Shown: positions 21,198 through 24,581, counted from the first letter of the stretch. The stretch: 64,000 bases of DNA from Deltaproteobacteria bacterium (GCA_016712475.1 JADJRA010000001.1:1733414-1797413), one strand, 5' to 3'. Notes: generated by a model from the sequence alone, not told the origin. Program-made: numbers and translations.

Positions 21198-21263
21198 TTC
21201 GGCGACGCCGGCGACGGCGACATGTTCGTCTCGTCACTTGGCGGTCTGAATCGAGCCGTCGGG
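21198..21263. repeat. Direct repeat copy 2 (66 bp, degenerate, 1-nt insertion)
   Basis: ttcggcgacgccggcgacggcgacatgttcgtctcgtcacttggcggtctgaatcgagccgtcggg. Its reverse complement encodes the last 9 aa (PDGSIQTAK) of the anti-sigma gene on the minus strand. Confidence 0.8.
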
Positions 21264-21731
21264 ACCGACCGCGAGGTTCGGATCATCGCAGGCACAGGGC
21301 GCCCGCGTGCACGCGAGCACGCAGGCCGCCTGGGCGTCCGTCATCTCGCTGCGAACGGGCGCGTCGCCGCCCGCCGGCGGGCTCCCATCGGGCTGCGAGG
21401 CGTTCTTCTGGTAGCCGGGCCAGTCGTACAGCGGCAGCTCCTCCTCGTGCTTCGGTCGCGCGTCGGGGTCGGCCACGCTCAGCTCGTACATCGGGCAGTG
21501 GGCCCACGACACGGTGACCAGCCCGACCGCGAGCGCGCCGAGCACCATCACGCGCAGCCACTGCCGCACGAACGGGCCGAACTCGCGGCGCGGTCGCCAG
21601 GTGCCCTGGTCGGCCTCGGCCTCGAGCCGCGCGAGGAAGCGGCGGTGGGCCCCGTCGACGTCGCTCGAGTGTCGATCGAGCGCCGACTTGGCGCGGGAGA
21701 TCAGCTCGGCTCGTGATTCATCGGCGTTCAC
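21234..21731 (-). CDS. Putative anti-sigma factor (membrane-spanning)
   Basis: GTG start 3 nt after the sigma stop. Cytoplasmic N-terminus, TM helix WLRVMVLGALAVGLVTVSWA, and a Cys-containing periplasmic tail. Confidence 0.55.
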   Translation of the reverse strand: MNADESRAELISRAKSALDRHSSDVDGAHRRFLARLEAEADQGTWRPRREFGPFVRQWLRVMVLGALAVGLVTVSWAHCPMYELSVADPDARPKHEEELPLYDWPGYQKNASQPDGSPPAGGDAPVRSEMTDAQAACVLACTRAPCACDDPNLAVGPDGSIQTAK

Positions 21732-21734
21732 GGC

Positions 21735-22292
21735 TCACACTCTTCCTTCTCGCGCGCGCAGCTTGGCGACCGCAGCATCGAAGCGATCGCGACCCAGGCG
21801 GAGACGCGAATACACGGTGTTGACGGAGATCTCGAGCAGCGTCGCGACCTCGGGTGCCGACAACGCCTCGAACTCCATCAGCACGAAGACCTCGCGCAGC
21901 TTGCTCGACATCCCATCCATCGCCCGCAGCGCGAGCGCCAGGGCCTCGTTGTTGGCGACGTCACGCTCGGGATCGTCGGCGGCCGCCGGCAGGGCATCGA
22001 CGAGCTCGGGCCGTCGCACGCGGCGGCGGTTGCGGGCGACGCCGCGGGCGATGCCATACAGCCACGCCCGCGCCGGCCGCGAGGGGTCGAAGTCGGCGCG
22101 GCGGCGGTGCGCGATCACGAACACCTCCTGCGTCACGTCGTCGGCGTCGATCGGCGGCACACCGAGCCCGACCAGGGCCCGCAGCACGAACGGGTAGTGC
22201 TCGCGGAACGCCGAGGCGACGTCCAGCTCGCCGCTGCCGACCACGACGAGCGCCGCCGGGGCCGGCGCGGCCGGCGGGTCGTAGGCGCTCAT
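21735..22292 (-). CDS. ECF-family RNA polymerase sigma factor
   Basis: ATG at 22292 (MSAYDPPAAP...). Region 2 FREHYPFVLRALVGLGV..DADDVTQEVFVIAHRR. Region 4 VFVLMEFEALSAPEVATLLEISVNTVYSRLRLGR. Confidence 0.8.
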   Translation of the reverse strand: MSAYDPPAAPAPAALVVVGSGELDVASAFREHYPFVLRALVGLGVPPIDADDVTQEVFVIAHRRRADFDPSRPARAWLYGIARGVARNRRRVRRPELVDALPAAADDPERDVANNEALALALRAMDGMSSKLREVFVLMEFEALSAPEVATLLEISVNTVYSRLRLGRDRFDAAVAKLRAREGRV

Positions 22293-22343
22293 CAGGCACG
22301 ATTCTGCCACGACCTGGATTTGTCGCGGCCGCGCCCGATCCGT

Positions 22344-22390
22344 CAGTGGCGTCGGCAGTGGCGTCGGCAGTGGCGTCGGCAGTGGCCCTG
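22344..22390. repeat. 12-bp tandem repeat (cagtggcgtcgg) x ~3.7 in the ECF sigma upstream region
   Basis: tcagtggcgtcggcagtggcgtcggcagtggcgtcggcagtggcc. Lies between the msrB stop (22394) and the sigma start (22292) on the minus strand. Confidence 0.85.
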
Positions 22391-22393
22391 GTT

Positions 22394-22834
22394 TCAGGCC
22401 CCAGGCGCCGTCGCGGGCACGAAGGCCAGCGCCACCGAGTTGATGCAGAAGCGCAGGCCCGTCGGCCGCGGCCCATCGGGGAACACGTGCCCGAGGTGGC
22501 AGTCGCAGCGCTGGCAGCGGATCTCGGTGCGCACCATGCCGTGGCTGGTGTCGCGGATCGACTTCACGTGCTCGGGGTCGAAGGGCTGAAAGAAGCTGGG
22601 CCAGCCAGTGCCGGACTCGAACTTGTTCTGCGAGCGGAACAGCGGCAGTCCGCACAGGCGGCACACGTAGACGCCGTCCTGCTTGTTGTCGAGCAGGCCA
22701 CCGCAGAACGGGCGCTCGGTACCGTGGTCGATCATCACGCGGCGCTCGTCGGGCGTCAGACCCGCCGCCAGCGTCTCGCGCTCGTCGGCCGAGAGGGGAG
22801 TGACATCGTGACCGGTGGAGGATCGCTGCGCCAT
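22394..22834 (-). CDS. msrB: Peptide-methionine (R)-S-oxide reductase MsrB
   Basis: ATG at 22834. Two CxxC zinc pairs (CGGLL.., CRLCG). GWPSF and HLGHVFPDGP motifs. Catalytic Cys in RFCINSVAL. Confidence 0.85.
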   Translation of the reverse strand: MAQRSSTGHDVTPLSADERETLAAGLTPDERRVMIDHGTERPFCGGLLDNKQDGVYVCRLCGLPLFRSQNKFESGTGWPSFFQPFDPEHVKSIRDTSHGMVRTEIRCQRCDCHLGHVFPDGPRPTGLRFCINSVALAFVPATAPGA

Positions 22835-22877
22835 CTTGCGGCGCCAAGCCTGACACGGCCCCGCGGGCGCGGCAAAG

Positions 22878-23741
22878 CTACGCGACGCGACGCGCGTAGA
22901 CCTCGAACGAGGTGCCGAGTCCGACGCGGTCCATCCACGTCGCCGGCAAGGCCGCGGCGTGACCGAGCACCTGCGAGAGCGCGACCGCAGGAGCCGAGCC
23001 ACCCAGTGCGTGGCGTCGCAGCGCACGGGCCAGCGTCTGCGGCCCGAGGTTGGAGAAGCTGGTCCACCGCACCGGCTCGAGGCCGACCCGCCGCAGCAGC
23101 GTACGCAGCCCCTCGCGCGTGAAGAGGGCGAGGTGATCGGGCGGCGTGATCATCGGGAAGCGGCGACCCATCAGTCGCGCCGGCATGCCCGACATGCTCG
23201 GAGTCGACAGCGCAACGATGCCCGCAGGTTCGAGCCACTGCACCATCGTGCGCAGCGCCGCGTGAGGATCGGGGAGGTGCTCGATCACCTCCCACAGCGC
23301 GAGCGCCTGCCATGGTCGCGGCGGCTCGTATTGCTCGAGCCAGGTGGTGTGCACGACGTGCCCGCGCGCACGCGCAGCCGCGGCGGTGCGGGCCGGATCG
23401 ACGCCCTCGATCTCGAGCCCGATGGCCTTGGCCGCGTCGAGGAAGTGACCGGGCCCGCAGCCGACCTCGATCACGCGATGGGCTCCGAGCTCGGCGACCA
23501 CACGGGCGCGCGCGTCGGCCTCCGCCCGCATGCGCACGGCGGCGTCCTGCGCGGTCTCGTGGTAGTCGGGCTGCAGGTACGTCGCCTGCACGATGTCACG
23601 GGGGGGCAGCGGCGCGACGAAGAGCGTCCCGCAGTCGCGGCAACGCACGAGCGGGTGCCCGGCGACCTCGAAGGCCCACTGCGATCGTGCGCACGCGCAG
23701 GCCGGACACGGACGCAAACCCTCTGCCACGCGCGCGCTCAC
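22878..23741 (-). CDS. Class I SAM-dependent methyltransferase
   Basis: N-terminal Cys4 zinc ribbon (CPACACAR..CRDCG). Motif I VIEVGCGPGHFL, followed by the Methyltransf_11/23-like fold. Confidence 0.75.
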   Translation of the reverse strand: MSARVAEGLRPCPACACARSQWAFEVAGHPLVRCRDCGTLFVAPLPPRDIVQATYLQPDYHETAQDAAVRMRAEADARARVVAELGAHRVIEVGCGPGHFLDAAKAIGLEIEGVDPARTAAAARARGHVVHTTWLEQYEPPRPWQALALWEVIEHLPDPHAALRTMVQWLEPAGIVALSTPSMSGMPARLMGRRFPMITPPDHLALFTREGLRTLLRRVGLEPVRWTSFSNLGPQTLARALRRHALGGSAPAVALSQVLGHAAALPATWMDRVGLGTSFEVYARRVA

Positions 23742-23791
23742 CGTCGACGGCGACGATAGCAGAGCGCGCGCGCGGCCGTCAGCTCGTGGAT

Positions 23792-23961
23792 CTCAGCAGT
23801 CGCACGGGCACGGGCAATCGTCGCAGTCGCAGAGGTCGCCGCACGGGCAAGGGCTCGCTGCATCGGCGCCGACGACGGGTGCCGTGGCGCCGGGTGCGAC
23901 GGCGCAGCCGCAGCCGCAGCCCGCGAGGTTGGTGGGGGTGGGGGTGGTGTTGCTGTCGTTC
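23792..23961 (-). CDS. Cys-rich metallothionein-like small protein (56 aa)
   Basis: Hand translation of the minus strand gives MNDSNTTPTPTNLAGCGCGCAVAPGATAPVVGADAASPCPCGDLCDCDDCPCPCDC*. 11 Cys, almost all codons end in G/C. AGGGA sits just upstream of the ATG. Starts 32 nt after the CorE-like sigma stop. Confidence 0.5.
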
Positions 23962-23993
23962 ATGTCCCTGCCGACGCGCGCACCGACCCGGCA

Positions 23994-24581
23994 TTACGAC
24001 GGTGGCAGTGGATGATCGCAGCTGCAGTCGCCACAGCCACCATCGGCACAGCTGCCGCAGCACTGCGCGAGCGCGCGGCGCAGGCGTTCGCGCGCACGGA
24101 ACAGGCGCACGCCGGCCGCGTTCGGCGTGATGCCGACCTCGGCCGCGACGTCCTTCACCGCGGCGCCTTCGAGGTCGACGCGGCGCAGCACCGTGGCTTG
24201 ATCGTGGGGCAGCGCATGCGCGAGTGTCAGCAGACAGCTGCAGATCTCGGCGCGCTCGTCGGGTGCTGGCTCGGGCGCGCGCTCGAGCGCCCGCGCCAGC
24301 TCGTCGAGCTTGCGCGCGAAGGTGTCGTCGCGCCGGCGGTGATCGATCACCGCGTTGCGCAGCATCCGGTAGAACCACGCCACCACCGACTCGTGATCCC
24401 GCAGCTGATCGATGCGCTCGAGCGAGCGCACGAACGCCGTCTGCAGGAGATCCTCGGCCAGCGCCGGGTCGTGCACGCGGCGCTGCACGAACCCGAGGAA
24501 CGCGCGCCAGCTCGGCAGCAGCGCGTCGATCGGCGAGGACTCGGGTTGATCGTGCATCGTGGGGCGGATCTCGTGGTTCAT
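23994..24581 (-). CDS. CorE-like ECF sigma factor with C-terminal Cys-rich domain
   Basis: GGGAGG Shine-Dalgarno 6 nt before ATG at 24581 (MNHEIRP...). ECF regions 2 and 4 (VLRRVDLEGAAVKDVAAEVGITPNAAGVRLFRARERLRRAL). Tail QCCGSCADGGCGDCSCDH resembles the metal-sensing Cys-rich domain of M. xanthus CorE. Confidence 0.75.
   Translation of the reverse strand: MNHEIRPTMHDQPESSPIDALLPSWRAFLGFVQRRVHDPALAEDLLQTAFVRSLERIDQLRDHESVVAWFYRMLRNAVIDHRRRDDTFARKLDELARALERAPEPAPDERAEICSCLLTLAHALPHDQATVLRRVDLEGAAVKDVAAEVGITPNAAGVRLFRARERLRRALAQCCGSCADGGCGDCSCDHPLPPS

Follow-up and report, generated by a model that had tools for sequence, protein, structure and literature searches.

A CorE-type sigma factor and a probably leaderless, metallothionein-like small gene form a putative copper-responsive module in a deltaproteobacterial genome

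We analyzed a stretch of 64,000 nucleotides (64 kb; hereafter the window) with a GC content of 71% from Deltaproteobacteria bacterium (GCA_016712475.1 JADJRA010000001.1:1733414-1797413). The block under study, positions 21234-24581, holds six open reading frames (ORFs), all on the minus strand and separated by successive gaps of 30, 51, 43, 101 and 3 nt. The first two ORFs encode a CorE-type extracytoplasmic function (ECF) sigma factor, here called sigma 1, and a cysteine-rich peptide of 56 amino acids (aa). We consider it fairly probable that the peptide is a copper-induced, metallothionein-like protein, probably made from a leaderless mRNA, and that it belongs to a CorE-type regulon in which sigma factor and peptide form one module. 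A sequence-only reading of the same DNA had joined all six genes into a single metal/redox regulon. Its description of six co-directional minus-strand genes with short gaps was accurate, and the best explanation of the data is that the functional unit consists of two genes, sigma 1 and the small ORF, not six.

Sigma 1 (195 aa; 23994..24581, minus strand) was recognized by its Pfam domains and by its pattern of cysteines, and a GGGAGG Shine-Dalgarno sequence ends 5 nt before its ATG. The Pfam matches to PF04542 (Sigma70_r2, 48.9 bits), PF08281 (Sigma70_r4_2, 32.9 bits) and PF07638 (Sigma70_ECF, 32 bits) were all above the cut-offs, as was the NCBIfam match to TIGR02937 (72 bits; cut-off 42.9). 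The CorE-like sigma factors, the former group ECF44 that is now included in ECF238, are defined by a C-terminal Cys-rich domain, a linker CxC motif and a missing anti-sigma factor; the linker CxC is essential and is kept in all ECF44 members (PMC4937300). Sigma 1 consists of sigma-2 plus sigma-4.2 regions only, as expected for this family, and has the linker CxC at C114 and C116. Its C-terminus reads ...QCCGSCADGGCGDCSCDHPLPPS, and the Cys-rich domain is made up of C174, C175, C178, A179, C183, C186 and C188. No anti-sigma gene was found beside it: the gene immediately downstream is that of the soluble 56-aa peptide, in which searches of Pfam and NCBIfam detected no anti-sigma domain.

The comparison with CorE of Myxococcus xanthus was made by residue numbers. 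The CorE residues C120, C122, C181, C184, A185, C189, C192 and C194 all map to sigma 1 at a constant offset of 6, so numbered that C175, C178, C186 and C188 of sigma 1 equal CorE 181, 184, 192 and 194, the four invariant cysteines of the family. Likewise, C183 corresponds to CorE C189, the chief residue for copper activation, and A179 to CorE A185, the published determinant of copper versus cadmium specificity. In an alignment of 18 homologues, C114, C116, C175, C178, C183, C186 and C188 were invariant and A179 was nearly so, and the spacing C-x2-C-x4-C-x2-C-x-C did not vary. Sigma 1 has more than 1000 homologues, and the tail of all 120 listed carries CGxCAxHGCxDCxC. Judged by these features, the CorE-like family gains a new member in sigma 1, and the Cys-rich tail claimed for it by the sequence-only reading is borne out, down to the linker CxC and the cysteine spacing of CorE. 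Sigma 1 also looks like a copper type rather than a cadmium/zinc type, because it has Ala at the metal-specificity position, where CorE2, a second sigma factor of the family, has its cadmium-determining Cys.

The small ORF (23793..23963, minus strand) was not annotated by any gene caller in the window. Its ATG lies 30 nt past the sigma 1 stop, not 32 nt as first reported. The predicted product contains 11 Cys among 56 residues (19.6%), arranged in CGCGC, CPC and CDCDDCPCPCDC, together with seven Asp, and lacks Arg, Lys, His and aromatic residues. The N-terminal 12-16 residues are free of Cys and rich in Thr, Pro and Asn, and a Cys-dense core follows. The GC content by codon position is 0.60/0.72/0.88, the last value (GC3) being close to the 0.87-0.91 of the neighboring genes. 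Both the 11-Cys frame and its high GC3 are thus as initially described. Frames of this kind are not rare in DNA of such composition: four 40-aa windows with at least 9 Cys were found in the 64 kb, the other three being Arg-rich and off-frame. Cys-rich composition is therefore insufficient by itself, and we regard the small ORF as real because it is conserved.

Two alternative readings of the N-terminus were considered and rejected. A lipoprotein with an LAGC lipobox at residues 13-16 is not compatible with the N-terminal sequence MNDSNTTPTPTN, which has neither a positive charge nor a hydrophobic stretch, and the Leu is missing in relatives. As for an upstream start at the TAATG overlap with sigma 1, that ATG shares the frame of the small ORF in L009, L089 and L092 but not in the window, L005, L008 or L091 (L-numbers denote loci around homologues of sigma 1).

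Relatives of the small ORF were reached through these loci and not through protein databases. The 97.5% identical relatives L001-L004 have kept the ORF intact, a single change from Leu to Val apart. The sigma orthologues in L005, L008, L009, L089, L091 and L092 are 55-69% identical to sigma 1, and in these six loci, as in L001, an ORF of 47-57 aa starts 29-30 nt past the sigma stop; in L036 a Cys-rich ORF lies just upstream of the sigma gene instead. A Cys-rich ORF thus adjoins every closely related sigma gene examined, where it is uncalled or barely called. The ORFs of L001, L036 and the six loci have 11-12 Cys, 6-9 acidic and 0-3 basic residues and no aromatic residues. The distant ones are 38-46% identical to the window peptide, with the Cys columns kept and the other positions diverged. 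The genes flanking the pair are wholly different among L036 and the six loci (hereafter the seven distant loci), and the sigma factor is therefore the sole constant partner of the peptide. By this conservation, the small ORF is a genuine gene tied to sigma 1.

The association extends further. At least 23 of 86 non-redundant loci of related CorE-type sigma factors contain an ORF of 34-57 aa with 9-13 Cys within 4 kb, in Myxococcota, Gemmatimonadales and one unclassified proteobacterial metagenome-assembled genome (MAG). These ORFs vary in orientation and comprise several sequence subtypes, and nearly all were missed by gene callers. That gene callers skip the ORF in almost every genome, that chance Cys-rich frames arise in 71% GC DNA and that a correctly spaced Shine-Dalgarno sequence is missing might suggest that the ORF is untranslated, conservation being confined to a promoter or RNA element and the open frame arising incidentally from a GC-rich sequence. 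We consider this very improbable. A length of 47-57 aa, 11-12 Cys, the absence of aromatic residues and the low content of Arg and Lys (0-3) are kept across nine loci despite the divergence of the non-Cys positions, the GC3 of 0.88 fits a coding frame, and the chance frames are Arg-rich and unconserved. Moreover, related versions with a leader have good AGGAGA sites.

These leadered subtypes (L021, L032, L035, L040, L041, L046, L056, L070, L071, L073, L076 and L084) share a hairpin in the 5' untranslated region (UTR), for instance GCGGGC-AAGA-CCCGC, located between the CGTC of the -10 element and the AGGAGA Shine-Dalgarno sequence. Of the 6 pairs predicted by RNAalifold, 4 show compensatory changes, and the hairpin may stabilize or regulate the mRNA. 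A scan of Rfam returned only a chance match to a miRNA (E = 0.77).

The evidence for a putative regulatory circuit shared by sigma factor and peptide comes from a promoter-like motif. Motif P1 (GTAATA-N16-CGTC; 24648..24672, minus strand) is situated upstream of sigma 1, within a gap of 103 nt, with its -10 element CGTC 66 nt before the ATG. Motif P2 (GTAATG-N16-CGTC; 23973..23997, minus strand) precedes the small ORF; its -35 element overlaps the TAA of sigma 1 and its -10 element ends 9 nt before the small-ORF ATG. The two have GTAAT-N16-CGTCGGC in common, and TAAT-N16-CGTC occurs exactly twice in the 64-kb window, at P1 and P2, as compared to 0.23 expected occurrences. The 30-nt spacer between the two genes is conserved as GTAATG-N16-CGTC-N8/9-ATG with the sigma TAA stop inside GTAAT, and the position of P2 is kept in L001, L056 and the six loci with 55-69% identical sigma factors. 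A copy ahead of the sigma gene was found in seven loci, among them L001, L005, L008, L009, L066 and L089. A general scan of positions 21000-24900 for sigma-70 promoters and terminators found no site, the simple terminator scan being uninformative for high-GC Myxococcota.

Across 638 kb of related loci, GTAAT-N16/17-CGTY was present in 73 copies, as compared to a mean of 3.45 in dinucleotide shuffles. It precedes 23/23 of the Cys-rich ORFs in these loci, and also genes for P1B-type copper ATPases (TIGR01511, 585-596 bits; cut-off 397) and for a resistance-nodulation-division (RND) efflux adaptor (TIGR01730, above the cut-off). Other genes behind it encode CopZ chaperone-like, CueO-like multicopper oxidase and MbnP-like proteins, all with matches below the NCBIfam curated cut-offs, and a weakly TolC-like outer-membrane protein. 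The small ORF thus has its motif in common with copper ATPase, CopZ-like and multicopper oxidase-like genes near related CorE-type sigma factors. The enrichment of the motif and the identities of the genes downstream of it have the signature of an ECF promoter that is cognate to this sigma clade, and of a copper-homeostasis regulon. We infer that sigma 1 itself recognizes GTAAT-N16-CGTC, in which case P1 is likely to be its autoregulatory ECF promoter.

The distance from the motif to the start codon bears on how the small ORF is translated. At 27/73 motif copies the start of an ORF (30 aa or longer) lies 7-9 nt past the -10 element, as compared to 5.8% of random positions (p = 2.6e-15), and the genes concerned include those of copper ATPases. 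As these are unambiguous genes, the same spacing at the small ORF speaks further against an untranslated frame. The AGGGA ahead of the small ORF, initially taken as its ribosome-binding site, ends 1 nt before the ATG and is too close for a Shine-Dalgarno sequence; a leaderless transcript is suggested instead. Since the spacing is of the 7-9-nt type, a leaderless mRNA is predicted, and this would explain why the small ORF has no well-spaced Shine-Dalgarno sequence. The transcript is thus probably leaderless.

Single loci in the motif survey show further features. In L015 (~844, minus strand) and L066 (1119, plus strand), the motif is followed by proteins, small or rich in His, that have a FTCPMHPEV...CPxC module at their end. 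This module also makes up the N-terminus of some of the copper ATPases, and the proteins may be further unannotated metal-binding members of the regulon. L056 has three motif copies around the sigma gene, at 3983 (minus strand), 4564 (plus strand) and 4859 (plus strand), which precede an MbnP-like copper-binding protein (79.6 bits; cut-off 140), an ORF of the metallothionein-like kind and a functionally uncharacterized protein of 424 aa, so that the locus forms a compact candidate regulon.

We propose the following scheme. By analogy with the family, a metal, most likely copper, would bind at the linker CxC and the C-terminal Cys-rich domain of sigma 1 and activate it. Active sigma 1 would bring RNA polymerase to GTAAT-N16-CGTC at P1, increasing expression of its own gene, and at P2, from which the small ORF would be transcribed. 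The P2 transcript is predicted to begin with the ATG of the small ORF, or no more than a few bases away from it, yielding a leaderless mRNA. Its product, an acidic peptide with 11 Cys and no aromatic residues, would be cytoplasmic and may hold metal ions in thiolate clusters in the manner of a metallothionein, Cu(I) being the likeliest ion. By buffering excess metal the peptide would lower the signal at sigma 1, which would close a negative feedback loop.

The peptide might, however, act mainly on sigma 1, by donating or stripping metal or by binding the sigma factor, and not serve as a detoxifying sink. It would then occupy the slot usually taken by an anti-sigma factor. The loci of the Nannocystaceae type are compatible with such a role, since the peptide gene there follows the sigma gene immediately at a conserved spacing of 29-30 nt; in addition, CorE-type sigma factors have no known anti-sigma factor, and the factors acting upstream of them are unknown. 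On the other hand, in many related loci the Cys-rich ORF lies upstream of the sigma gene or on the opposite strand with its own copy of the promoter, where it behaves like an ordinary regulon member alongside copper ATPases, and the peptide carries neither an anti-sigma domain signature nor any Pfam match. A mainly regulatory peptide is therefore regarded as unlikely, and a buffer that is itself under the control of sigma 1 is preferred.

The assignment of this buffer to the metallothioneins was examined by composition and by homology. The peptide is small, has a high Cys content in CxC runs, and contains no Phe, Trp or Tyr, which are likewise missing from all 8 family members, in line with the few or no aromatic residues typical of the class. 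By homology, the sequences stand apart. A word-indexed homology search with the window peptide gave no match, phmmer returned 0 matches among 1.84 billion representative proteins, and a search of the Protein Data Bank (PDB) with the peptides found nothing. A profile of 8 members run against 5.8 billion proteins retrieved one called relative, a 'hypothetical protein' in a Nannocystaceae MAG. The comparison with bacterial metallothionein profiles that the sequence-only reading had proposed produced no Pfam or NCBIfam family match at E up to 10; for one relative, there was a meaningless 7-bit match to a eukaryotic metallothionein. In a metagenome scan with back-translated CPCPCDC, the 120 matches listed were all off-frame or simple repeats, none of them with the promoter motif. 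Protein-database searches fail because the ORFs are small, of low complexity and rarely called, whereas the route by synteny with the sigma gene succeeded. Of the metallothionein role first suggested, the conserved metallothionein-like composition and the tie to the sigma factor stand, and membership in a known metallothionein family does not. By compositional criteria the peptide is metallothionein-like, yet it belongs to no described metallothionein sequence family, and we consider it probably a new bacterial metallothionein-like copper buffer.

Several points weigh against this interpretation. The metallothionein assignment draws on composition, size and context, with no detectable homology to known metallothionein families, and the window and L001 differ at only 2 sites in the small ORF, so that the substitution pattern is uninformative. 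The match of sigma 1 to CorE is one of residue numbering and not of sequence alignment. Copper as the metal is an indirect assignment, and the family member CorE2 answers to Cd and Zn. Finally, the link between sigma 1 and the motif is one of association only, and the published M. xanthus CorE site was proposed in silico and built around an AAC -35 element.

A different product was considered in view of the gene that follows the small ORF after 51 nt. It encodes a class I S-adenosylmethionine (SAM)-dependent methyltransferase (22878..23741, minus strand), as the sequence-only reading had it, with a match to Methyltransf_23 of 90.3 bits (cut-off 27), weak sub-threshold matches only in NCBIfam, and an N-terminal CxxC...CxxC segment that resembles a zinc ribbon. 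The small ORF could accordingly be the precursor of a Cys-rich ribosomally synthesized and post-translationally modified peptide (RiPP), with its Cys-free, Thr/Pro/Asn-rich N-terminus as the leader and the Cys-dense part as a core modified by neighbors such as the methyltransferase, one of whose weak NCBIfam matches is to the RiPP methyltransferase ApyS. This match is far under threshold (16 bits; cut-off 400), and the peptide and copper-export genes are found under the same promoter motif. No candidate modifying enzyme is kept with the peptide in the seven distant loci, where only the sigma factor is constant, which argues against a RiPP. We therefore attach hardly any probability to the precursor role that had been raised for the small ORF, and retain the metallothionein-like buffer.

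The methyltransferase gene is followed by msrB (22394..22834, minus strand), whose product was confirmed as a peptide-methionine (R)-S-oxide reductase by a SelR domain (PF01641, 167.8 bits) and by TIGR00357 (170 bits), above the curated cut-off of 113. Next to it is the earlier noted 12-bp tandem repeat (minus-strand unit CCACTGCCGACG) at 22344..22386, which is present in 3.6 perfect copies (Tandem Repeats Finder score 86) and lies between msrB and a second ECF sigma gene. In the 97.5% identical L001 and L002, this region is 22 nt shorter and degenerate. It is a slippage tract of variable copy number that has recently expanded in the presumed promoter region of the second sigma gene, and not a conserved element.

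The second sigma factor, sigma 2 (185 aa; 21735..22292, minus strand), is a generic ECF sigma without a Cys-rich tail, with matches to Sigma70_r2, Sigma70_r4_2 and TIGR02937 (68 bits; cut-off 42.9). The last ORF of the block (165 aa; 21234..21731, minus strand) begins 3 nt after the sigma 2 stop and is a putative anti-sigma factor of sigma 2 by position and topology only. A single hydrophobic segment (VMVLGALAVGLVTVSWA) is present, the C-terminal part contains Cys, and searches of Pfam and NCBIfam gave no match at E up to 0.1 and no recognizable anti-sigma domain such as zf-HC2 or RskA. Of the sigma/anti-sigma pair named in the sequence-only reading, sigma 2 is thus confirmed, and its partner is placed by position and the hydrophobic segment, without a family match.

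All six genes might still form one metal/oxidative-stress cassette, transcribed by read-through from the promoters of sigma 1 and the peptide. They are co-directional with short gaps, no terminator-like site was seen between them in the simple scan that is uninformative for high-GC Myxococcota, and their order is kept in L001-L004. MsrB repairs oxidised methionine, and its presence would fit copper-driven oxidative damage. However, the methyltransferase, MsrB, sigma 2 and putative anti-sigma genes follow the sigma-peptide pair only in these 97.5% identical relatives. None of them is found beside the pair in the seven distant loci, which carry quite different downstream genes, and no copy of GTAAT-N16-CGTC precedes any of the four in the 64-kb window. 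Membership of these genes in the sigma-peptide module cannot be demonstrated, and we see little chance that the six genes act as one cassette. The claim of a single metal/redox regulon is accordingly replaced by that of the two-gene module.

Two further features lie outside the block. Directly upstream of sigma 1 (window 24685-27113, minus strand) are genes for a DTW-domain protein (205-211 aa) and a membrane protein of about 400 aa with no Pfam match on record; their synteny is kept in the close relatives of the window as well as in L005 and L008, with no evident link to the module. On the plus strand, a long ORF at 18722-20260 combines a Ser/Thr/Asp-rich N-terminal region with a Cys-containing DGxC...GEACDDG-type segment. 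The product resembles the secreted repeat proteins of myxobacteria, and the ORF overlaps with spurious GC-rich frames of great length.

The CorE-type proteins are the best-studied ECF sigma factors that sense a ligand directly, and their target promoters have been proposed only in silico and their partners are largely unknown. With GTAAT-N16-CGTC, the regulon can be predicted from sequence (86 loci hold 73 sites), and from the frequent start spacing of 7-9 nt, copper-defence genes in the phyla concerned are predicted to be expressed without a leader. A class of metal-buffering micro-proteins may escape standard annotation, because one called relative was found in 5.8 billion proteins. More tentatively, CorE-type regulons in Myxococcota, Gemmatimonadota and Acidobacteriota alike may have small, mostly unannotated metallothionein-like proteins at their core, expressed under a common GTAAT-N16-CGTC promoter and often without a leader. 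In the Nannocystaceae form, this promoter incorporates the stop codon of the sigma gene. The peptide and the Cys-rich sensor of the sigma factor, competing for the same copper, would then constitute a self-contained feedback pair of sensor and buffer. Bacterial metallothioneins would gain at least one new family, and the sigma clade its first defined promoter; we hold this wider reading as a possibility with the odds somewhat against it.

In the literature searched, an incomplete library, we found no paper linking metallothionein-like genes to CorE-type sigma factors and no report of a metallothionein from myxobacteria, and queries for the GTAAT-N16-CGTC motif in that library returned only primers and no description. 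Bacterial metallothionein families are few, those covered by the reviews found being essentially SmtA/BmtA and MymT.

Among known systems, CorE (MXAN_3426), the founding CorE-like sigma factor, is closest to sigma 1. Both consist of sigma-2 and sigma-4.2 regions only with a linker CxC, both have the spacing C-x2-C-(A)-x3-C-x2-C-x-C, identical at the constant offset of 6, and neither has an adjacent anti-sigma gene. The regulon of CorE contains copper P-type ATPases and a multicopper oxidase, and a similar content is suggested for the sigma 1 clade by its relatives. In contrast to CorE, sigma 1 has an extra Cys (C174) ahead of the motif, and its tail past the last conserved Cys is 7 residues long and lacks the distal Cys206 of the 38-residue domain of CorE. 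Furthermore, the promoter motif here has a GTAAT -35 element, whereas the in-silico CorE site is AAC-based, and sigma 1 has an attached metallothionein-like gene, none being reported for CorE.

CorE2 (MXAN_5263) belongs to the same family, with a CxC and a six-Cys C-terminal domain, and switches on neighboring metal-homeostasis genes. In both CorE and CorE2, metal binding to the linker CxC and the Cys-rich domain sets the activity, without an anti-sigma factor. CorE2 responds to Cd and Zn, and its cysteines C169, C173, C174, C178, C181 and C183 form a different pattern (C169-x3-C173-C174-x3-C178-x2-C181-x-C183), in which the cadmium-determining Cys174 stands where sigma 1 has Ala.

On the side of the peptide, SmtA/BmtA (PF02069) of cyanobacteria and Pseudomonas are likewise Cys-rich, metal-sequestering proteins of ~50-60 aa, but the window peptide has no match in Pfam even at E = 10. 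In proteins of the SmtA type, both Cys and His serve in a fold that resembles a zinc finger, and control is exerted by repressors of the ArsR/SmtB type. MymT of Mycobacterium tuberculosis, a small cytoplasmic Cys-rich protein of the RicR regulon, has been described as copper-protective and as part of a copper-responsive regulon, and was long overlooked by annotation owing to its size. It shows no sequence similarity to the window peptide, which is more Cys-dense and free of His, and it is controlled by a repressor of the CsoR family and not by an ECF sigma factor. By analogy of function, then, MymT is the closest counterpart of the peptide, although the two would be regulated quite differently.

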